10,154 nt of DNA from a virus (IMGVR_UViG_2671181118_000005), one strand, 5' to 3'; positions 1 to 10,099 are shown, numbered from the stretch's first letter. Numbers and translations are program-made. The notes: generated from the sequence alone by a model not told the origin.

Positions 1-2454
1 GTAATCAAACGACGATGTGGTTTTCGTCCCCAAATCCGTACTGGATGCGCTGGCGCTGTGGGTGTGCGATTTAATGCCGTCCTGTTCCTGAGACAATACG
101 GCCCGACCACTGGCAGGTTTGCCCTTAATCGTCCAGCCACGCATATCAGGGATCACGCCTGACGGATAAGCGGCTGCAAGTTTCGGGTAAGCAGATTTGT
201 CAAAAGTCTGCCCCTGCATCAGGGCATAACCAGACGGAACGGTATCTGATGGCCACGGGATTGGTGCGCCGACTGGGTAGCTTTCTGGTGGAAGATTTTT
301 CGAGGTATAAACTTCTGCCCAGCCTTCCTCAAAACCATAACCGTCTCTTGAAGAACGGTAGAACAGACCACCATTTCTGTAATGCGCCTTCATCTGCAGG
401 GTCCGGCAACTTCCGACTCCGGTATAGAAGTTAACCAGAATATAGCTGTCGCCAGAGCGGGTGACATTGTAAGCGCCTGATTCGGCATTCCAGGGAACGC
501 CACCATCCGCATCGGCATATGTATCCGTTGCCCTTCTGGCAAAAGCAGCCACATGCGCGGCGGTTAAAGTAATATCTTTGGAACCATCAAATGGAACACC
601 GGATATTTTTCTTGCAGTCTGGAGTTTTGTAGCAGTTGCAGCATTACCAGTGGTGTTCTGATTACCCGTAGTGTTTACACCTGGAAGGTTAATATTTGCA
701 GAACCGTCGAAAACAACTCCACCGATAGATCTTGCCGTCTGCAATTTCGTGGCTGTACTTGCATTACCATTCAATGAACCAGTTAATCCACCTGTAACAG
801 ACAACGGACCTGAAACTGTTCCTCCGGTTGTTGGCAGTGCTCCAATATCTGATGGTGTAGGTTTCTGATGTGAGCTATACATCGTATAAACAACACCATA
901 GGTAACGCTGGAAGGCTTACTCGCTGAATATGTTGGCGAGGTATAAACAGAAACTGACGCATTTGCAGTACAATCCCAATGGATATTTACACTCGTCGCA
1001 TAATTGCCAATCTCAACGTAAATATCATATGTATCGCCGGATGTGTTGATCCAGGCGAAATTCGTTAATCCGACGGCTGTACGCTTCCACAAAGCCCCGG
1101 TAATTCCTTTGGGGTTTCCATTGCCTGCTCGTAGAACCAGTTCTGAAATGCCTGCCTGATGTGGGGAACCGACGTTGTAACCAGCGCCACCAATCAATGC
1201 GATGTAAACGATGGAACTCGCTTGTGGCATGGTAACCGTAGCCAGTTTGAACCACCCAGCCCCGCCAGAGAAAGACATCGTTACTGAATTTAAAGTACCA
1301 ATATCTTTCGGCGTTAATGTTATATCCGCAGTCAGTGCTTTTCCGTTAACTTTTCGGTTAGATGGCACCCTGCTATTCGCATTGTCATTGGCTGCTTTAA
1401 CTGCTTTTGGCGTTGCGGCCAGCGATTCACTGGTGCTATCAACAGCACTGCTAAGTTTCACAACACCTTTAGTTGTAAGGCTTGCGTCTTCCATCGCAAC
1501 TGCACCGGCAATCTCTTCAGCACGATCAGCAGCAGCTTCCGCACGGGTCGCAGCGGATTCAGCAGTAGTTTTGCTCTGAGATGCCGCCGTCGCACTGCCA
1601 GCTGCCTCTGTCGCCTTCGTGGATGCTGTCGTGGCGCTGCCTTTCGCTGCTGATGCCTGTCTGCTCGCCTCATCTTTTGAAGCAGACGCAGATGATGCCG
1701 ATGACGCCGCCGAACTGGCGGACGATGCAGCTGCCATTTTTGAGGATTCTGCACTGGTTTCCGAGGCTTTCGCGTTCGTTTCGGATGTCTTCGCTGCGGA
1801 TGCAGACCTCGCTGCTGCGCTGGCCTGTTCAGCGGCTTCGCCAGCCTTCGTTGTGGCTGTTGAAGCAGACGATGCGGCGCTTTCTGCCGATTTTCCGGCG
1901 GCGGTGGCACTGGCTGAGGCCTGCCCGGCACTTGTTGACGCGGCACTGGCAGACGACGCAGCCGCTGTTTTTGAGCCTGCCGCAGCCGAGGCGCTCTGTC
2001 CCGCTGCCGTTTCAGAAGACCTGGCGTTTGTCTCAGACGTCTTTGCCGCCTTCGCGGAATTGCCTGCCGCCGTTGCCGAGGAAGCGGCACTACTGGCGCT
2101 TGATGATGCGTTCGTTTCTGATGATTTCGCTGCCTCTTTTGAGGCCGCCGCATCCCGGGCTGAGGTGGCTGCTTCTGACGCCTTCGTGGTCGCGGCGGAT
2201 GCAGAAGTGGCTGCTGATTGTTGTGACGCTGCCGCATTCGTTTCTGACGTTTTCGCCGCACCGGCACTGGTAGCTGCCGCGCTTTTTGAGGACTCTGCAG
2301 CAGCACTTTTTGCTGCTTCACGGGCCTTTGTCGATGCCGTTCCTGCGCTGGAAGACGCTGACTGAGCCGACGACGCGGCCTGTCCGGCTGACGTGCTGGC
2401 GGCACGTGCTGAGCCTGCAGCATCGGTTATTACCACTTCCCGGATCGCTATACG
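1..2454 (-). pseudogene. stf: Side tail fibre protein (lambda Stf family), 5'-truncated, C-terminus beyond window start. Frame is open from an in-frame TAG at 2455-2457 to position 1 and has no start codon of its own.
   Basis: Hand translation of the minus strand (codons with lowest coordinate = 1 mod 3). Positions 60-1 give [20 protein letters not shown], matching the recalled lambda Stf C-terminal region; 1740-1380 give Ala/Ser/Thr-rich sequence ([26 protein letters not shown]) matching mid-Stf; 2440-2380 give [16 protein letters not shown], matching Stf around residue 140. Spot checks at 541-600, 901-960 and 1201-1260 show no stops. Confidence 0.8.
1460..2430 (-). repeat. Low-complexity Ala/Ser/Thr-rich coding repeat inside the tail fibre gene; it leaves several frames open on both strands.
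   Basis: Reiterated GCN/TCN/ACN codons in the true frame. The six-frame track shows long stop-free ORFs in other frames (Arg/Pro/Gln-rich on minus, Ala/Asp-rich on plus) typical of such repeats. Confidence 0.6.
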
Positions 2455-3292
2455 CTATTCCGTTAAAGATAATGGGCGGAATAATGATTTGACGGTCAAA
2501 GTTATGATCATCGCTGATGGTGACTGTAACCGTCCCGTTTGGTGTTTCCGTATTACCCCACGTACCAGCCTGTTTCGGGAATGATTTGGATACAGCTTTA
2601 ACGAAGTCACCTCTGACCTGAGTCGCCTCCAGCATGCCCTTAATCGTACAGTTTTCATTTACCGTGACATTGTTGAGCGTCCCGGCGTTCGCATTCACAC
2701 TGCCACTGATATCCGCATTTTTAGCGGTCAGCTTTCCGTCCGGTGTCAGGGAAAATGCCGGTGGATTTCCACCGCTGGTAATGGTGGGGGCCGTCAGGCG
2801 TTTCAGGAACACGTCGTTCATGAATATCTGATCGCCCTGACCAACAAACATCGGTTTTGTGTTGCCATTCGCAGGATTAACCATCGCAATCCTGTCCGCC
2901 GCCAGCAGCACCTGACTCTGCATGCCGTCAGGGGTGTTCTCAATATCCACGATGGCCTCTTTTTCCGGTACATGCTGCACGGCGGTGATGGCATACGTGC
3001 CGTCGTCGTTCTCACGGATACTCACGCAGCGGAACAGGCGCTGGCGCAACGTCGGCAGCTTCAGCCCCCATACGCTGTATTCAGCAACGCCGTCAGGAAC
3101 ACGGCTCACTTTCACCTTCACGCCGTCGGTGACGGACTGAACCTCCACGCTGACCGGACTCCCCTGCCCGTCAACCAGGCTTATCAGCGTGGTGCCGGAA
3201 GATGGCAGCGTGATTTCACGGTCGAGCGTCAGCGTCCGGGTCTGGCTGTTTACCGCCAGCACGCGCCCGCCGGTGCGGATACCCAAGCTGGA
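2318..3292 (-). pseudogene. J: Host specificity / central tail fibre protein J, internal fragment. N-terminal part is missing, the C-terminal receptor-binding end is missing, and the frame runs about 40 codons out of frame into stf before stopping at 2318.
   Basis: ORF translation [29 protein letters not shown]...[14 protein letters not shown]...[30 protein letters not shown] and ...[56 protein letters not shown]... matches the recalled C-terminal third of lambda J. The J frame opens right after a TAA about 3293-3301. Confidence 0.8.
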
Positions 3293-3504
3293 GTGGCGAA
3301 CGTTTTACCCTTGCTGATGAGGTATTCACTGATTTCGCTGTACCACATGTGGCTGAGTGCATTCTGGGAAAGACTGCGTCTCTCGCGCCACGGTTTAAGC
3401 ACCATGCGAAAGCATTTGCCGTCCTCCAGATAAGGCTGGATCTGCCGACCGATAGCGGTGAAGTTACCGCGATGCAATTTGATACCATCTTGTGGGAGGT
3501 TCAC
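3250..3504 (-). pseudogene. NinB/Orf-family recombination protein, N-terminal fragment of about 65 residues joined to J-derived sequence.
   Basis: GTG start at 3502-3504 preceded by GGAGGTG. The motif ERRSLSQN...W resembles the RSLDQNRKLW region of lambda NinB as recalled. The ORF then reads through J-derived DNA to a stop at 3250. Position after ren and the cargo island fits the lambda nin region. Confidence 0.5.
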
Positions 3505-3698
3505 GCTTCACCTCCGCAGAGATCAAACGCTGGATGCAAAATATCGCAGGTGCATTTCTGCATCTGTGAATGGAGAAGAGAGGTTGGATTGTATGTGCGC
3601 ATAAACGTCCCCGTTTAGCGCAGAAGTCACCGGAGTTGTTCAGGCCCCAATGGCATGATTATGGCTGGTTGATTATTGGAAATCAAATGTGCTGAAAA

Positions 3699-4208
3699 TT
3701 AGTCTGCCAAGTCTTCCTCAGTCGCAACTGGGTAATTCCAAATATCAAAAAAAGCTATAGCCTCCTGCCATTTGCTCCATAAGTTATCAAGTACTTGTGT
3801 AGGTTCCGTACTTTTAAAAACAGAATCAGCCGCATCACCGTTATGAACTTCCTCGTACAGTTCCATTATTAGCAGATTAACAAAGTACTGTTTCAACATT
3901 AATGCCTGATTACCTTCTTTCTGCTGGCTATCCTGCTTGATGATCTCCATCGCCCGTACTAGGCACCTGATGATATCCGCTGCATCATTAACGCTCCATT
4001 CAGATCCGCGCTTATCTTTAGCTGATGAATTGGCTCTCTCAGCGCAAGCCTTTAAAGACTCATAAAGGTAAACTCTATTTTGTAGCTGCAGCGCTTTTTT
4101 TGACGTGTACCAACTTGCAAGCGCCGACCCCGCTGCGGCTAATGTGCCAAACGCAGAAATACCTGCTGCTATTGCACTTAAGTCGGCACTGTCAAAGTTC
4201 CACATCAT
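3699..4208 (-). CDS. Hypothetical 169-aa protein with a single N-terminal hydrophobic segment (likely membrane anchor) and a helical, acidic C-terminal domain. Orphan; function unknown.
   Basis: ATGATG start with AAGGTG Shine-Dalgarno about 6 nt upstream. Residues about 10-32 (LSAIAAGISAFGTLAAAGSALASWY) are hydrophobic. AT-rich upstream region, and an upstream terminator separates it from the preceding gene. Confidence 0.55.
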   Translation of the reverse strand: MMWNFDSADLSAIAAGISAFGTLAAAGSALASWYTSKKALQLQNRVYLYESLKACAERANSSAKDKRGSEWSVNDAADIIRCLVRAMEIIKQDSQQKEGNQALMLKQYFVNLLIMELYEEVHNGDAADSVFKSTEPTQVLDNLWSKWQEAIAFFDIWNYPVATEEDLAD

Positions 4209-4383
4209 CGTTACACCTTATATAAATACCCCTCAGTAATATCCAATAAGGTATGTGCACAATCAATATAATTTTATCCGTATCGGCACATAGCGATTTG
4301 AACGCTACTGGTAATGGTATATTTTAGATTATATCGTCCAGTTTACAGCACCCGTATTTTATGAAATGGACTCGCATATTACC
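4209..4383 (-). promoter_or_regulatory. AT-rich putative promoter/operator region for the 169-aa gene, including an inverted repeat ATGTGC-N27-GCACAT at 4253-4291.
   Basis: Non-coding AT-rich DNA between an upstream terminator and the start codon. The inverted repeat was seen by eye; no promoter consensus was scored. Confidence 0.3.
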
Positions 4384-4422
4384 CAAAAAATGCCAGCACT
4401 TCCGTCATCGTAGAATGCTGGC
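4384..4422 (-). terminator. Rho-independent terminator candidate downstream of the 99-aa ORF (minus-strand sense).
   Basis: Perfect 7-bp inverted repeat GCCAGCA ... TGCTGGC at 4392-4398 / 4416-4422, followed on the minus strand by ATTTTTTGGG (plus 4384-4391). Confidence 0.4.
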
Positions 4423-4466
4423 AGTATTTCTAACTAGTGACTTTATTGGAACAGATTCTGACGGAA

Positions 4467-4766
4467 TTATGGTAACACTCGACTCCACTTATCATCCAGC
4501 CACGGCTGGAATTTTACATGTGCCGTTTCTCTGGCGAGGATTGCTCGCGCTCTGTTGAGTATCTGGGGATATTCTTGCTCGATAGAAGTAAAGCGGCCGG
4601 CTTCGCGGTGCTCCGCAACCTGAAGTAGTGGAGTAACGTTCTGGCAGGCAGTTAACATCACATCACCTGCTCGCCATAACCAAGCACGTGCACAAAGTTT
4701 GTTATCAGTGAATTGTTTTGTGATTGGGTATTGTTGAACTGCTAGAACGAGAACGCCAGCATCCAT
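4467..4766 (-). CDS. Hypothetical 99-aa protein, no recognisable motif.
   Basis: ORF with ATG start bounded by an in-frame TAG three codons upstream; weak ribosome-binding site; followed by the terminator-like hairpin at 4384-4422. Confidence 0.4.
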   Translation of the reverse strand: MDAGVLVLAVQQYPITKQFTDNKLCARAWLWRAGDVMLTACQNVTPLLQVAEHREAGRFTSIEQEYPQILNRARAILARETAHVKFQPWLDDKWSRVLP

Positions 4767-4877
4767 TGGCAGTCCCTATAGTAAAACCATAGCTCAGGAC
4801 GCTTCGTTCAGGATAGATAATTTTATTGTGCTTACCTAACTTTCTTACTATAGCACGGTTGAAAAAGTGATTATTAC

Positions 4878-6404
4878 TCAAAAATAAACCTCACCATCAA
4901 CCATATATTTGAGAGTACTTATCGCCTGCTGGGCGGATATTGTTTTCATTAAAGGATAGTGTTTAAAAACAATGCCATTCATAAAATAGATATCACAGGT
5001 TTTATTATCTGTATTGATTATGATTTTTTCGAATGTTTTATAGGCAAGTGTACGACATAGCTCTCGCCCATTTTTACTGGTTAAGTCAATAGCATGAAAA
5101 TCACCAAGTGAACTCACCGCTTTACTCTTCAAAGTTTTTAATGATACAGAAGCCCTTCGTAATTCCTTATCTAATACTCTGATTTTTTCTGCTATAGCGG
5201 TAACTTCAGGCGCAACAGATAATGCAGCAATTAAATTATTAATTTTCATCTGGAGCTCAATAATTTTCAACTCTAAAGTTTCATTAGCATCTTTCTTGTT
5301 TTCAACTGGTTGGATTTTACTACAATTAAAAAGCAACTCATTAATGATATTATAATCAACCAAATCTCTCTTTATTGATGGCCTGTCACATCGATGCAGT
5401 CTTCTCATCGGACAAACATAATAGCCATGCAAACTTCCAGATACCGCATGAACAATCATGGTATTACCACAAGCCTCGCACTTCATAACTGTTCGAAGTA
5501 GATTTATCAACATAGGATTTTTGCTACTATTGCTAATACCAAAAGGTGCCAACCGAATTTCCTGCACAGCGTAAAACAAATCATCTGATATGACTCTGGG
5601 ATAATAGCCAGCGATTTCACTTATTCCTTTACCTCTTGCACGATATGAAGGTACGCATATACCTATCAGAGCTTTATTCGCTAATAATTTTTCAATTACA
5701 GAAGGTCCCCATGCACTTTCTTTTCCTGAGAAATTCTTTACAGCATGATCATTTAAATACTTGGCTATTGCATTCAATGAGCGCCTTTCCATCCTGAGTT
5801 TAAAAATTAGCTCAATAGTTTTCACCCTGTCGGGGTCTGGAACAAAAGCCGTTCTTTTGTCATCCAATGAGAGCCATCTCGGACAAGACGCCGTCATAAT
5901 CGTGCCTGACTCCAGTGCATCCTGCCGTTTTTTCTTCCATGATAATTTAACCCGACTTGACTTTATCTCGCTTTCTTCATTTGCCCTTTGTGCTATAAGT
6001 ATGGCTTTTATTAATGAATATGGCTCATTCAATGAGTCAATATTATAGACTGTATTATCGCAAAGAGTTATAACATCAATACCGTGATTCAAAATCAATT
6101 TCAGACGCTCAATCGCCTCACCGACTTTTTCTCTTGAAAGTCTGTCCAGACTTTCAACTAACAATGTAGTCCCTGGCAATATATAACCATGTTCTATAGC
6201 ATCTAAAAATTCCGAAAAAGCTCCTGATTGTGCATGCTTTCCATTGAATGCGCTTAACCCCAAATCTTCATACGTTACGGTATCAAGGTAATAATCACTA
6301 TTTACCTTTAGCCATTCAGTAATAAGCCTTCTCTGGCGGTTTAATGAATCACCAGACATCTGACTTGGTGATGAAAATCGCATATATGCTATGGCTTTTT
6401 TCAT
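4878..6404 (-). CDS. ybcK: Large serine recombinase, 508 aa (resolvase-type catalytic N-terminal domain, recombinase domain, Cys-rich zinc-ribbon, coiled-coil region). Resembles the DLP12 putative recombinase YbcK.
   Basis: N-terminal AYMRFSSPSQ...R motif typical of serine recombinases; C-x2-C ... C ... C cluster (CEACGNT...YYVCPMRRLHRCDRP). Length and position next to emrE match K-12 ybcK as recalled. AT-rich codon usage. Confidence 0.85.
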   Translation of the reverse strand: MKKAIAYMRFSSPSQMSGDSLNRQRRLITEWLKVNSDYYLDTVTYEDLGLSAFNGKHAQSGAFSEFLDAIEHGYILPGTTLLVESLDRLSREKVGEAIERLKLILNHGIDVITLCDNTVYNIDSLNEPYSLIKAILIAQRANEESEIKSSRVKLSWKKKRQDALESGTIMTASCPRWLSLDDKRTAFVPDPDRVKTIELIFKLRMERRSLNAIAKYLNDHAVKNFSGKESAWGPSVIEKLLANKALIGICVPSYRARGKGISEIAGYYPRVISDDLFYAVQEIRLAPFGISNSSKNPMLINLLRTVMKCEACGNTMIVHAVSGSLHGYYVCPMRRLHRCDRPSIKRDLVDYNIINELLFNCSKIQPVENKKDANETLELKIIELQMKINNLIAALSVAPEVTAIAEKIRVLDKELRRASVSLKTLKSKAVSSLGDFHAIDLTSKNGRELCRTLAYKTFEKIIINTDNKTCDIYFMNGIVFKHYPLMKTISAQQAISTLKYMVDGEVYF

Positions 6405-6659
6405 GGTGACACCTGCTAAAGTATGCTTTTATAAACCTTAGTGGTGAGATATGATTTTTGTTTAATTTTTATTTAAAAAGACAATTAAGGTCACATTATC
6501 TTGAATATACAACAATAATCGTATTGCAATTTTCTTACACCATAATCTTGAAAGCACAAAAGAATGAATAAAAACTAAAGACATTAACAAAAAGCATAAA
6601 ACGAGGCCCATATAAATATACGAGCCTCCATATTTTAGTCGTTTAAAAACAAATTATTT
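6405..6659 (-). promoter_or_regulatory. AT-rich intergenic region; probable promoter region for the recombinase gene.
   Basis: About 255 bp of very AT-rich non-coding DNA between the emrE stop and the recombinase start. Confidence 0.3.
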
Positions 6660-6992
6660 TTAATGTGGTGTGCTTCGTGACAATAAATTAATAACCAACA
6701 CACCGGCACAAATCAACATCATGCCTATAATGGCTGGCAGGTCCAACCGTTGGCCGAAAAATCCCCATGATAGTAAGCTAATCAGGACAATACCGACTCC
6801 TGACCAGATAGCATAAGCAATCCCTGTAGGAATATAAGCCAGCGTCTGAGCTAATAACCAGAATGATGCACAATAACAAATAATTGTACCAACAGATGGC
6901 CATAACCGTGTAAAACCTTCTGAAAACTTCATTAAGGTTGTACCAATGACCTCTGCAAGTATTGCACCACCAAGATAAATATAAGGGTTCAT
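6660..6992 (-). CDS. emrE: Small multidrug resistance (SMR) efflux transporter EmrE, 110 aa.
   Basis: From the internal Met (MNPYIYLGGAILAEVIGTTLMKFSEGFTRLWPSVG...LSRSTPH) the translation is near-identical to E. coli EmrE as recalled. AGGAAAG ribosome-binding site upstream of ATG at 6990-6992. The upstream 18 codons in the track ORF are probably not translated. Confidence 0.93.
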   Translation of the reverse strand: MNPYIYLGGAILAEVIGTTLMKFSEGFTRLWPSVGTIICYCASFWLLAQTLAYIPTGIAYAIWSGVGIVLISLLSWGFFGQRLDLPAIIGMMLICAGVLVINLLSRSTPH

Positions 6993-7059
6993 AGCATATT
7001 CTTTCCTGTTCAAACTGGAGAGAATTGTACTACAGTTTGAACTCAACTCACCTGTTTCA

Positions 7060-7362
7060 TCATTGTGTACCCATTGATGTTCTTTTATATACCCTCAATA
7101 CCCGTTTCATCGCGGCACTCTGGCGACACTCCTTAAAAATCAAATTCGTGCTCACCTTTCCTTCCCATTCTTCTCTGGTAGCGAACCGATAATACACCGT
7201 TCGCCAGACCTTACCATCAACGACTAGGATTCCTGCCCGCGCCATTTTAGCCGCAGCCTGATTTATGCTGGTTACCGTTGCGCCTGTTACCGCGGCAACG
7301 TCCTGCGCACAGAATTTCTTATGAGTCCCCAGGTAATGAATAATTGACTCTTTGCCCGTCAT
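7060..7362 (-). CDS. ren: Ren protein (lambdoid Ren exclusion-related protein), 100 aa.
   Basis: MTGKE.IIHYLGTH...TGATVTSINQAAAKMARAG...VWRTVYYRFATREE matches lambda Ren as recalled. 4-bp ATGA overlap with the P stop, as in lambda. Confidence 0.85.
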   Translation of the reverse strand: MTGKESIIHYLGTHKKFCAQDVAAVTGATVTSINQAAAKMARAGILVVDGKVWRTVYYRFATREEWEGKVSTNLIFKECRQSAAMKRVLRVYKRTSMGTQ

Positions 7363-8060
7363 ACCCTTGCTCCTTTCAGCCCAAACTTAGCTTTGATTTC
7401 TGCGATCTTCGCCAGAGCCTGTGCACGATTTAGAGGTCTACCGCCCATGACAGGAAGTTGTTTTACTGGTTCAGGTATAGCCTCACCACGGTTAATTCGT
7501 GCGGTCATACAGGACAGTTCATCGGCAGCCTTGCGCCGTAATTCCGCGTCAGTCAACGCATTGGCCCGCATGTTCTGATACAGGTTGGTAACCAGCCAGT
7601 AGTGCGCGTTTGATTTCCACGGATAAGACTCTGCATCCGGATACAGCCCGCGCTTCCGGCAATACTCGTAAACCATATCAACCAGCTCGCTGGCGTTTGG
7701 CAGCCCGGCGGTAACGGATGCTTCTTCCCGGCACCAGGCGACAAACTGCCCGGGTGATGGCAGGAATGGTCGATTCTGCCGACGGGCTACGCGCATTCCA
7801 GCGTTAACCTGTTCCATTGTGGTGATCCCGTTTTCCCGAAAAGCCAGCACCCACTGGCGGCGGATTTCGTTCAGTTCATTCTGGTCACGGTTAGCCAGGC
7901 TCGCCGGGAAAGTTGCCAGTAACTGGCTGAACACACCGTTGATGATCTGCGCTACCTGCTGTACCTGTGGCTTTTCGTCGTACTGTTCCGGCATGTTGTT
8001 GGCGATCCGACGCATCTGCTCACGGTCAAAGTTAACCATCTGTGCGGCGATGTTTTTCAT
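7359..8060 (-). CDS. P: Replication protein P (DnaB helicase loader), 233 aa, apparently full length.
   Basis: MKNIAAQMVNFDREQMRRIANNMPEQYDEKPQVQQVAQIINGVF... matches lambda P almost residue for residue as recalled. Start overlaps the O stop (ATGA), as in lambda. Confidence 0.92.
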   Translation of the reverse strand: MKNIAAQMVNFDREQMRRIANNMPEQYDEKPQVQQVAQIINGVFSQLLATFPASLANRDQNELNEIRRQWVLAFRENGITTMEQVNAGMRVARRQNRPFLPSPGQFVAWCREEASVTAGLPNASELVDMVYEYCRKRGLYPDAESYPWKSNAHYWLVTNLYQNMRANALTDAELRRKAADELSCMTARINRGEAIPEPVKQLPVMGGRPLNRAQALAKIAEIKAKFGLKGARV

Positions 8061-8296
8061 AGATCCACCCCGTAAATCCAGTCAGTGTTTGTCAGGTCGA
8101 GTTTTGGTTTGCCGACTGTCACGCCAGCCTGTTGCTTGTTCCGGTTGATTTCGAGCTGGGTCCACTTGTCGCGGAGTTTGGCCGGACTCAGCACGTTACC
8201 GGACCAGAAGTTGTCCTGGCAGGCCCAGCGGAACAGTACACACATGTCGCGGTGGTTACGTCCATCACGTTCACGCATCAGACGGATATCGTTACC
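8057..8296 (-). pseudogene. O: Replication initiator O, C-terminal fragment of about 78 residues; N-terminal domain and the origin iterons are deleted.
   Basis: Minus-strand translation [76 protein letters not shown] matches the lambda O C-terminus. Upstream of about 8296 the same strand is antisense exo sequence. Confidence 0.85.
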
Positions 8297-8947
8297 GGGA
8301 TCGACGTGAGAGCTGTCGAACAGGGGGATGATGCGTGGCACAAATTACGGCTCGGCGTCATCACCGCTTCAGAAGTTCACAACGTGATAGCAAAGCCCCG
8401 CTCAGGAAAGAAGTGGCCTGACATGAAAATGTCCTACTTCCACACCCTGCTTGCCGAGGTTTGCACCGGTGTGGCTCCGGAAGTTAACGCTAAAGCACTG
8501 GCCTGGGGAAAACAGTACGAGAACGACGCCAGAACCCTGTTTGAGTTCACTTCCGGCGTAAATGTTATTGAATCCCCGATCATCTATCGCGACGAAAGTA
8601 TGCGCACCGCCTGCTCTCCCGATGGTTTATGCAGTGACGGCAATGGCCTTGAACTGAAATGCCCGTTTACCTCCCGGGATTTCATGAAGTTCCGGCTCGG
8701 TGGTTTCGAGGCCATAAAGTCGGCTTACATGGCCCAGGTGCAGTACAGCATGTGGGTGACGCGAAAAGATGCCTGGTACTTTGCCAACTATGACCCGCGT
8801 ATGAAGCGTGAAGGCCTGCATTATGTCGTGGTTGAGCGGGATGAAAAGTACATGGCGAATTTTGACGAGATGGTGCCGGAGTTCATCGAAAAAATGGACG
8901 AGGCACTGGCTGAAATTGGTTTTGTATTTGGGGAGCAATGGCGATGA
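8293..8947 (+). pseudogene. exo: Lambda-type exonuclease (Red-alpha / Exo), missing roughly its first 10 codons; fused upstream to antisense O/P DNA, with a fortuitous in-frame ATG at 8132.
   Basis: Translation from [31 protein letters not shown]... to ...[14 protein letters not shown] matches lambda Exo as recalled. bet and gam are not upstream where expected. Confidence 0.9.
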
Positions 8948-9098: not shown

Positions 9099-9718
9099 AT
9101 GAGTCAGGTTGGTAATCATTCATTCGAATTTCCGGCATCGCAAGGTGTACAGGGTGGTACTGTTACACTCTTCCTTACCATACCAGGAAGATCGCTGGCT
9201 CGTTTCCTCGCTTCAGATAATTACGGCCATACACTGGAACGCTCTCAGCGAGAAATTAATCCAAATCGAGTACGAAAATTTTTAAATTATCTCACTAACG
9301 CAGACTCAAGAAATGAGCCTTTTATCATTCCCCCTCTCGTAGGTAACTGTGATTCGAATATAGAATTTGTACCGTTTGGCAACACAAATGTTGGTATAGC
9401 CAGAATTCCCCTCGACGCCGAAATAAAACTTTTTGATGGTCAACATCGTGCAGCTGGCATTGAGATATTTTGCCGAAGTTCCCCATCAACGCTCATGGTT
9501 CCCATGATGCTTACAATGAATCTGCCGCTAAAAACCCGGCAGCAGTTCTTTTCGGACATAAATAACAACGTTTCTAAGCCATCAGCGACCATCAATATGG
9601 CGTATAACGGCCGGGATGATATTGCTCAGGGAATGATATCCTTCCTGACCCAACATACTGTATTTGCCGATATAACCGATTTTGAACACAACGTAGTGCC
9701 ATTAAAAAGTAATATGTG
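9099..9718 (+). pseudogene. DGQHR-motif protein (DndB-like, ParB/Srx-fold family), 3'-truncated after about 206 codons by the IS insertion.
   Basis: ATG at 9099 with AGGAGG ribosome-binding site. Translation contains the family-defining FDGQHR motif (…AEIKLFDGQHRAAGIEIF…). The last 16 codons of the track ORF ([16 protein letters not shown]) are encoded by the IS left end, not by the gene. Confidence 0.7.
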
Positions 9719-9772
9719 TGAACCGCCCCGGGAATCCTGGAGACTAAACTTCCTGAGAAAGAGGTAAACAGG

Positions 9773-10099
9773 ATGACTAAAAATACTCGTTTTTCCCCCG
9801 AAGTCCGTCAACGGGCAGTCCGTATGGTTCTGGAAAGTCAGGATGAATATGACTCACAGTGGGCGGCAATTTGTTCCATTGCCCCAAAGATTGGCTGTAC
9901 GCCGGAGACTCTGCGTGTCTGGGTTCGCCAGCATGAGCGGGATACCGGGGGCGGTGATGGTGGGCTCACCAGCGCTGAACGTCAGCGTCTGAAAGAGCTG
10001 GAACGTGAAAATCGTGAACTGCGCCGCAGTAACGATATCCTTCGCCAGGCTTCCGCTTATTTTGCGAAGGCGGAGTTCGACCGCCTCTGGAAAAAATGA
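9773..10099 (+). CDS. IS629-group transposase OrfA (helix-turn-helix plus leucine-zipper subunit), 108 aa.
   Basis: [60 protein letters not shown]... matches IS629 OrfA as recalled. Confidence 0.9.

Follow-up and report, generated by a model that had tools for sequence, protein, structure and literature searches.

The AT-rich emrE-ylcJ-ybcK region of a DLP12-type prophage as a probable accessory-gene slot of lambdoid phages

Introduction

The nin region is non-essential and mosaic among lambdoid phages, whose accessory-gene ('moron') slots lie between conserved modules, deviate in GC content, are polymorphic in both presence and content, and hold genes of host benefit or defence. In the DLP12 prophage of Escherichia coli K-12 the gene order is renD-emrE-ylcJ-ybcK-ybcL-ybcM-ylcH-ybcN, and in phage lambda (ren-tR2-ninB) only 73 nucleotides (nt), with no more than the tR2 terminator, separate ren from ninB. 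Here we analyse a region that matches K-12 DLP12 in gene order and position, namely the AT-rich block at positions 3505–6992 of a 10,154-nt stretch of viral DNA (IMGVR_UViG_2671181118_000005; the window, hereafter, is this whole stretch). The window is a DLP12-type (Bievrevirus-like) lambdoid prophage of E. coli that has undergone heavy deletion; positions 1–7964 are 99.9% identical to strain ML35, and several genomes are 100% identical over 3200–7400.

The block contains ybcK, which encodes a large serine recombinase that shares domain architecture, catalytic residues and zinc-ribbon residues with phiC31 Int, Bxb1 Int, A118 Int and TnpX/TndX. A recombinase gene beside a variable segment is also the arrangement found in integrons, shufflons and invertible tail-fibre segments, and a preliminary description of this DNA proposed a recombinase-associated exchangeable cargo site. 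Our comparison of related loci argues, with good probability, for a simpler reading, in which the block is an accessory-gene slot of DLP12/Bievrevirus-type prophages and its swapped content reflects ordinary lambdoid mosaicism for which YbcK is not needed.

Results

Comparison with K-12 DLP12

Two blocks of the window align with K-12 DLP12, one of 95.9% identity over 4839–7273 (from the 3' part of ren through emrE and ylcJ to ybcK) and one of 92.6% over 3280–3687 (ylcH and the 5' part of ybcN). Between them, 1151 nt in the window replace the 1813 nt of ybcL-ybcM in K-12, which bears out the earlier statement that the distal part has been swapped, as well as the K-12 content named there (emrE, ybcK, ybcL and ybcM, to which ylcJ is to be added). 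Where K-12 has ybcL (PEBP-like) and ybcM (AraC-like), the window has a C-terminal remnant of an Ant anti-repressor gene and a gene for a 169-amino-acid (aa) protein.

The AT-rich character of the block is equally clear, with a GC content of 0.39 over 3505–6992 and 0.36 over emrE-ylcJ-ybcK, compared with 0.54 in the left and 0.51 in the right flank. Its limits, however, are better drawn from the mosaic joints, which place the variable slot at 3688–7090 (38% GC) rather than at 3505–6992; the left joint falls at ~7087–7091, within the final ~30 nt of ren, and the leader and ylcH (3505–3687) belong to the conserved backbone outside the slot. The genes reported previously, that is emrE, a 508-aa large serine recombinase, two small genes, ren and a remnant in the position of NinB, are all present, and ylcJ and ylcH are additional genes of the region. 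The description of a cargo island stands; the block is foreign-looking and has an intact large serine recombinase inside. All genes of the region are on the minus strand, and those of the slot are as follows.

6660–6992, minus strand: emrE, 110 aa, SMR multidrug efflux transporter (PF00893, E 3e-35; WP_001070442.1)
6462–6611, minus strand: ylcJ, open reading frame (ORF) of 49 codons (PF23688, YlcJ), annotated in K-12; the spacer around the ORF has 27% GC
4878–6404, minus strand: ybcK, 508 aa, intact large serine recombinase (PF00239, PF07508, PF13408; phrog_95, integrase)
4767–4877, minus strand: 111-nt spacer 3' of ybcK, the right end of the emrE-ylcJ-ybcK module
4467–4766, minus strand: 99-aa ORF ('P22AR-C'), 5'-truncated remnant of an Ant anti-repressor gene (PF10548), holding its C-terminal ~100 residues
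3699–4208, minus strand: 169-aa ORF of phrog_1779 (E 1e-102), an uncharacterised family; the distal cargo gene of this variant
3658–3687, minus strand: right mosaic joint (3687/3688) with a sigma-70-like promoter element (TTGATT-N17-CATAAT) and a TTGATT-N6-AATCAA dyad

Cargo classes and joints in ybcK-bearing phages

The variability of the slot was surveyed in 80 IMG/VR contigs that carry ybcK at the 97–100% level. Upstream of ybcK, ren and emrE are present in every locus that reaches far enough (76/76), whereas at least eight unrelated cargo classes occupy the interval between the ybcK stop codon and the conserved right flank.

ybcL and ybcM (K-12 class)
169-aa gene (variant of the window)
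alpha/beta-hydrolase lipoprotein gene, on the opposite strand
class G: 260-aa protein with a CxxC...CxxC HNH-like motif (phrog_6544)
class H: 118-aa protein
class I: 314-aa BstA abortive-infection protein (loci L040, L044 and L046; ~620–1560 nt after the ybcK stop)
pair of a 90-aa and a 105-aa protein
83-aa protein

Two more variants are disrupted forms of these classes, one of class H carrying a 1334-nt insertion sequence with IS3-family-type transposase ORFs and one of class G carrying a 2436-nt insertion with transposase-like ORFs. The content of the island therefore does differ between related prophages, as the preliminary description had expected of a locus comparison, and among ybcK-bearing phages the variation is indeed confined to the recombinase-distal part.

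In PADLOC, the class-I protein matches BstA over its full length (E 4e-121) and is the sole cargo protein to find a match; YbcK, the 169-aa protein and most of the other cargo proteins do not. BstA genes are usually described downstream of the prophage repressor. The HNH-like protein of class G is a possible uncharacterised defence gene. The 169-aa protein has a hydrophobic N-terminal segment and gave no match in Pfam.

The two ends of the cargo behave differently. On the left, the joints are ragged, lying +39 (K-12 class), ~+280, ~+330, +407 to +428 and +486 nt past the stop codon of ybcK, in all cases within or just 3' of the ant remnant; the 111-nt spacer is common to all non-K-12 classes, whereas K-12 clearly shares its first ~39 nt and shows weaker similarity beyond. 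On the right, every variant examined is joined at one nucleotide (within 1 nt). Variation that stops at one exact nucleotide, and that lies on the recombinase-distal side alone, is what would be expected if YbcK exchanged distal cassettes at a dedicated site beside its own gene. Such a site would need a conserved sequence on the cargo side to serve as the element-side arm for a serine recombinase, and the sequences abutting the right joint are unrelated to one another, which, like the raggedness of the left joints, counts against an exchange site.

Repeats or rearrangement products at the island borders, whose absence the preliminary description had named beforehand as refuting it, were not found either. 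A repeat search over 3200–7400 returned short AT-rich matches only, and blastn and tblastx comparison of the left with the right flank gave no sign of a duplicated target. Cargo classes do not match one another on the minus strand, as inverted cargo would, and none of the 80 loci has an excised, inverted or relocated version. One 16-nt inverted repeat (15/16), with arms just after the ybcK stop and in ybcK codons 34–39, was rejected as a site because it is degraded in the K-12 class and because at least ~0.1 such matches are expected by chance. Separately, we note that the emrE 3' flank is 84% similar over 38 nt to the first bases of the Perceval-type cargo, which could be chance similarity in AT-rich DNA.

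The same junction in phages without ybcK

The position of the exact right joint proved to be a property of the junction rather than of ybcK. When IMG/VR was searched with the hairpin sequence that follows the joint, irrespective of ybcK status, 79 contigs with enough upstream sequence were recovered, and clustering of the 300 nt immediately upstream of the joint gave 47 unrelated groups, all of which stop at the same nucleotide. Only ~8/79 of these contigs have ybcK within 6 kb, leaving ~70 without it. Cargo is shared across this divide: the 118-aa gene of class H is also present, at the same joint, in the ybcK-less loci L130 and L145, and ybcK-less L125 carries a 45%-identical homolog of the 169-aa protein directly before the joint, ending in the same C-terminal residues (EDLAD).

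With a concatenated query of ren and ylcH-ybcN, 110 genomes were found in which these two anchors lie ~0.7 kb apart. Of the three such loci inspected, none is a true empty site. Two (L017 and L019) hold other small genes and break at window positions ~7087–7091 and 3687/3688; their homology to the window, and that of L145, stops at reverse-complement coordinates 3064–3068, at the end of ren. In the third (L018), a simple deletion that extends from codon 52 of ybcK to ylcH has also removed the distal cargo.

The variability of the joint is thus independent of ybcK. The locus has the properties of a lambdoid accessory slot, with non-essential DNA between conserved modules, variability in relatives and deviant composition, while bounding recombination sites and co-occurrence of the variability with the recombinase, which would characterize cassette exchange, are both missing. 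The proposal of a recombinase-associated exchangeable cargo site fails on the same observations, as the right joint is common to recombinase-free phages, the left joints are ragged and cargo genes occur in ybcK-less phages as well. Together with the missing arms and flanking repeats, these results largely refute the idea that YbcK is a cassette-exchange enzyme, which we regard as extremely unlikely.

The ant remnant and the history of the module

The 99-aa ORF corresponds to positions 225–314 of the 319 positions of phrog_245 (Ant) and matches PF10548, so that of the two Ant domains the N-terminal Bro/Ant DNA-binding domain is missing and the ORF, previously counted among 'two orphans', is a truncated C-terminal Ant remnant. 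Full-length Ant genes with the same C-terminus and with the N-terminal half present, encoding 249 aa and 202 aa, are found in the ybcK-less loci L145 and L130, respectively, and in L145 the order is an Arc-like 90-aa gene, the full-length ant, the 118-aa cargo gene and the joint. This recalls the arc-ant module of P22 immI, since ybcK-less relatives likewise carry an Arc-like gene and a full-length Ant in the slot, but the window retains the C-terminal third of Ant alone and has lost the arc-like gene and the Ant N-terminal domain.

When ybcK-bearing and ybcK-less phages are compared, homology on the cargo side sets in +113 to +125 nt beyond the stop codon of ybcK; on the ren side it stops within the final 30 nt of that gene. 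These limits indicate that the module (window ~4766–7090) replaced the upstream genes together with the 5' half of ant. Between classes, the synonymous divergence (dS) of the ant remnant is 0.1–0.5, compared with ~0.1 for ybcK.

The cut in ant, ~110 nt downstream of ybcK, and the foreign composition of the block raise the alternative that emrE-ylcJ-ybcK, with or without the distal cargo, is a present or past small integrative element, with YbcK as its integrase and the ant gene of the slot as the target of site-specific insertion. Homologs of 50–59% identity, in flanks that were read to 10 kb at most, are the last or nearly the last gene of their prophages, 3' of the tail-fibre genes and reading toward the host junction, a place where an integrase could sit.

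Atlantibacter: prophage-end homolog, 540 nt from the 3' end of ssrA
Erwinia: prophage-end homolog, adjoining lepA
Ewingella: prophage-end homolog, by host genes
Yersinia: prophage-end homolog

In addition, a 60% homolog in L012 is bracketed, together with KGG and DinI genes, by a 229-nt direct repeat (82.5% nt identity; 58/60 residues) that spans the leader and codons 1–60 of the DUF1367 nin gene downstream, an arrangement that would look like a discrete insertion, and in Atlantibacter RC6 the same module meets a different upstream gene. In the E. coli lineage, however, the other side of the block has neither a 5' fragment of ant nor a target duplication or repeat resembling an attachment (att) site, and its left boundary is the mosaic joint in ren that other prophages share. 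Relative to ybcK-less relatives the block is a replacement rather than an insertion; it is found at one position only, and no pair of empty and occupied sites was seen. The sister-lineage module in L100 lacks a flanking duplication, and nothing comparable to the L012 repeat surrounds the E. coli module. The host prophages have a tyrosine integrase of their own, and the loci examined give no sign of present mobility of the module. We therefore consider an integrative element unlikely, and likewise improbable its more specific form, in which the recombinase marks the right end of the element and reads outward to the junction.

One further homolog deserves mention in its own right. In Citrobacter koseri (L013, 8145–11530), a 49% YbcK homolog is divergently oriented to a gene whose 555-aa product faintly matches Shufflon_N (PilV-like), within an island that also carries TraD and MobA/MobL genes; here a serine recombinase would adjoin a pilin of shufflon type. 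The usual shufflon enzyme is the tyrosine recombinase Rci.

Integrity and constraint of YbcK

YbcK has both the catalytic domain of a large serine recombinase (Resolvase, PF00239, E 1e-18) and the recombinase and zinc-ribbon domains that accompany it (Recombinase, PF07508, E 2e-14; Zn_ribbon_recom, PF13408, E 8e-8). Its catalytic motifs are Y7-x-R9-x-S11-S12-x-x-Q15 and D87-R88-L-S-R91, and across 18 aligned family members, with identities as low as 41%, R9, S11, Q15, D87, R88 and R91 are invariant, as are the zinc-ribbon cysteines C309, C312, C331 and C339. The gene is found in 1424/5426 complete E. coli genomes, of which 1398 have at least 80% of it, and occupies the same place in 12 deposited Escherichia phage genomes with 97–98% protein identity. 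Intact alleles number 38/39, and the median ratio of nonsynonymous to synonymous substitution rates (dN/dS) is 0.064, compared with 0.083 for P, 0.106 for emrE and 0.152 for ren. Low dN/dS and intact alleles indicate purifying selection on a maintained protein rather than a decaying remnant. In all probability YbcK has remained active as a site-specific recombinase.

The position of ybcK between ren and the nin genes, in prophages whose ends carry a tyrosine integrase, is not that of an integrase at the edge of an element. Integration of the whole phage through YbcK was considered and rejected: in the loci examined the 3' flank of ybcK always runs into phage DNA and never meets host DNA, and the sole odd locus is the simple deletion in L018.

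Strong constraint on a catalytically intact protein at a conserved internal position raises another alternative, that YbcK has been recruited for a different function of the early right operon, such as inserting the whole phage at a secondary site, switching by inversion or acting on the DNA of competing phages. Its presence in deposited phage genomes fits such a role, as does its recurrence between the replication genes and Q of lambdoid prophages in three lineages, namely E. coli, the L012, L100 and L229 type (60% identity) and Pantoea L308 (42%), two of which (E. coli and Pantoea) have a tyrosine integrase at the prophage end. Yet the repeats, flanks and joint-side sequences searched offer no candidate substrate, inverted variants were not seen, and the only inverted repeat around ybcK is the 16-nt pair degraded in the K-12 class. 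With host DNA never found at the 3' flank, no PADLOC match and a literature in which we found ybcK in gene lists and one sabinene-tolerance study only, with no paper assigning a function, we judge a recruited role to be quite unlikely.

The structured leader before ylcH

Immediately beyond the right joint, a conserved leader of ~90 nt (window 3596–3687, minus strand) opens the nin block. It is found as well in L107–L186, in L012 (9623–9700 and 12609–12690) and in L100 (~2740–2810). The conserved features from this point onward are listed below.

3596–3652, minus strand: two-hairpin leader, with hairpin 1 at 3628–3652 (loop CCUGAACAA) and hairpin 2 at 3596–3622
3501–3602, minus strand: ylcH, 33-codon ORF, with which the conserved nin block begins
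3250–3504, minus strand: 5' remnant of ybcN (gene in the NinB position), 84 aa, fused by a large deletion to a remnant of the tail-tip gene J at 3279/3280

The leader has a minimum free energy of −22.9 kcal/mol (z = −2.1). Hairpin 2 encloses the Shine-Dalgarno sequence and the AUG of the first ORF, which is ylcH or ylcH-like and, in L012, the DUF1367 gene, and relatives have four different inner stems in which pairing is fully kept. The loop of hairpin 1 is invariant among relatives. Rfam gave zero matches in window 3200–7400 at E <= 1. The 9-nt loop sequence also occurs in L012 at 15190–15225, ~300 nt downstream of Q, in a GC-rich hairpin followed by a T-run that resembles an intrinsic terminator, a recurrence which hints at a recognised motif and not at chance.

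The first ~40 nt of the leader differ slightly from one cargo class to another, which implies that the crossovers by which a class spreads lie deeper inside the conserved flank.

Other features of the window

The remaining features of the flagged region lie upstream in the direction of transcription or overlap the slot genes.

7359–8060, minus strand: P, replication gene
7060–7362, minus strand: ren, called Ren in the annotation of identical genomes; the ~30 nt at the gene end hold the left mosaic joint
6603–6628, minus strand: terminator-like hairpin with an 11-bp stem (consensus scan), directly 3' of emrE and overlapping the start of ylcJ

The emrE product belongs to the SMR family by its Multi_Drug_Res profile and by the EmrE annotation of WP_001070442.1 in identical loci and in the ML35 record. 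In the consensus scan, promoter-like matches were no commoner in the region than in shuffled sequence, and a terminator-like hairpin follows emrE. The start of ylcJ lies within this hairpin; ylcJ has its own Pfam family and a small-protein annotation in K-12. With a dN/dS of ~1.25 (12 alleles, 25 pairs), constraint on ylcJ is undetectable, and given this value and the overlap with the hairpin its status as a selected coding gene is doubtful.

Outside the region, the window shows further signs of deletion. At 8057–8947, a C-terminal fragment of O (94 aa, minus strand) meets the plus-strand exo gene (YqaJ/lambda exonuclease) at ~8293/8294, and relative to the prophage of E. coli 55989 the immunity region (the 5' part of O, cII, cro, cI, kil, gam and bet) is deleted. 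At 9099–10099, a 222-aa ORF of the DndB family (DNA-sulfur-modification-associated) covers only positions 1–197 of the 338-position profile and is apparently cut off by an IS3-family element, the first ORF of which begins at 9773. The segment 1458–2423 has a GC content of 0.60–0.65, a strong negative AT skew and long overlapping ORFs on both strands, and lies within a part annotated in ML35 as a phage tail protein with a hypothetical gene on the opposite strand; it probably encodes repetitive tail-fibre sequence, the antisense ORF being spurious.

Discussion

Direct observation covers the anatomy of the locus, its classes of variants, the contrast between ragged joints on the left and an exact one on the right, variability at the joint irrespective of ybcK, and purifying selection on ybcK. 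All of this is well accommodated by a mosaic accessory-gene slot with two layers. The proximal layer would be the low-GC ~2.3-kb emrE-ylcJ-ybcK module, fixed at one position in this phage lineage by a joining event that would have removed the 5' half of a resident ant gene and left the remnant ~110 nt downstream of ybcK. The distal layer would be one of many alternative cargo genes that abut the exact joint before the nin leader. We infer that the module may have come from the recombinase-bearing end of another element, and that new joints at the slot may arise by rare illegitimate recombination, after which Red/Rad52-type or RecA recombination, homologous or homeologous, would disseminate them via the conserved flanks, with ybcK and the ant remnant on one side and the leader, ylcH and ybcN on the other. 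The class-specific starts of the leader, and an ant remnant that is more diverged than ybcK, fit spread by homologous exchange. Experiments have demonstrated that lambdoid phages recombine with DLP12 through flanking homology (PMC3945230).

Three points sit less easily with ordinary mosaicism. The exact joint beneath 47 unrelated upstream sequences is sharper than illegitimate recombination and selection would easily give, and selection on ybcK as strong as that on P shows that the recombinase does something which a mosaic explanation leaves unstated. Moreover, rare rearrangements could escape a survey of 80 plus 79 viral contigs and a few genomes out of the 1424 that are ybcK-positive. The first point might reflect a site-directed process at the leader, carried out by something other than YbcK; the nucleotide-exact joint ahead of the structured nin leader might then be where accessory genes are inserted in a directed way. 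The second could be taken to mean that recombinases of the YbcK family are not leftovers but a conserved and selected early-right (nin) function in several lambdoid lineages with tyrosine integrases, in a role distinct from integration of the phage; examples would be transfer of the module and its cargo between co-resident lambdoid genomes, integration at secondary sites or recombination on competing phage DNA. We hold this generalization to be rather doubtful.

The junction between ren and the nin genes is among the richest accessory-gene hot spots of E. coli lambdoid phages, and the BstA-family cargo recommends it for the discovery of more defence genes. At the joint lies a previously undescribed structured leader, in which the ribosome-binding site of the first nin ORF is concealed. 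YbcK is the only large serine recombinase of E. coli K-12 and is constrained like an essential replication gene; its internal position is conserved in diverged phages, and the question of its substrate can be approached in existing inducible lysogens.

Set against described systems, the locus is the well-known DLP12 emrE-ybcK region in variant form and reveals no new mechanism of mobile DNA; the window prophage also differs from K-12 DLP12 by further deletions (the fusions of ybcN with tail gene J and of O with exo). In contrast to phiC31-type integrases and transposases, YbcK is internal to a prophage that also has a tyrosine integrase, and att sites, repeats and alternative locations were not found. 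Compared with integrons, shufflons and invertible tail-fibre segments, there are no repeated sites, no fixed left boundary and no inversions, and the variability is independent of the recombinase. The closest likeness is to the moron slots of other lambdoid phages, with emrE as the host-benefit gene here and BstA as the defence gene in one variant, from which this slot differs in the unusual number of its variants (47 different contexts upstream of the joint among 79 contigs) and in having a nucleotide-exact joint ahead of a structured leader. What goes beyond the textbook picture is thus the number of variants, the exactness of the joint and a conserved internal recombinase, differences that are quantitative and do not define a new kind of system.

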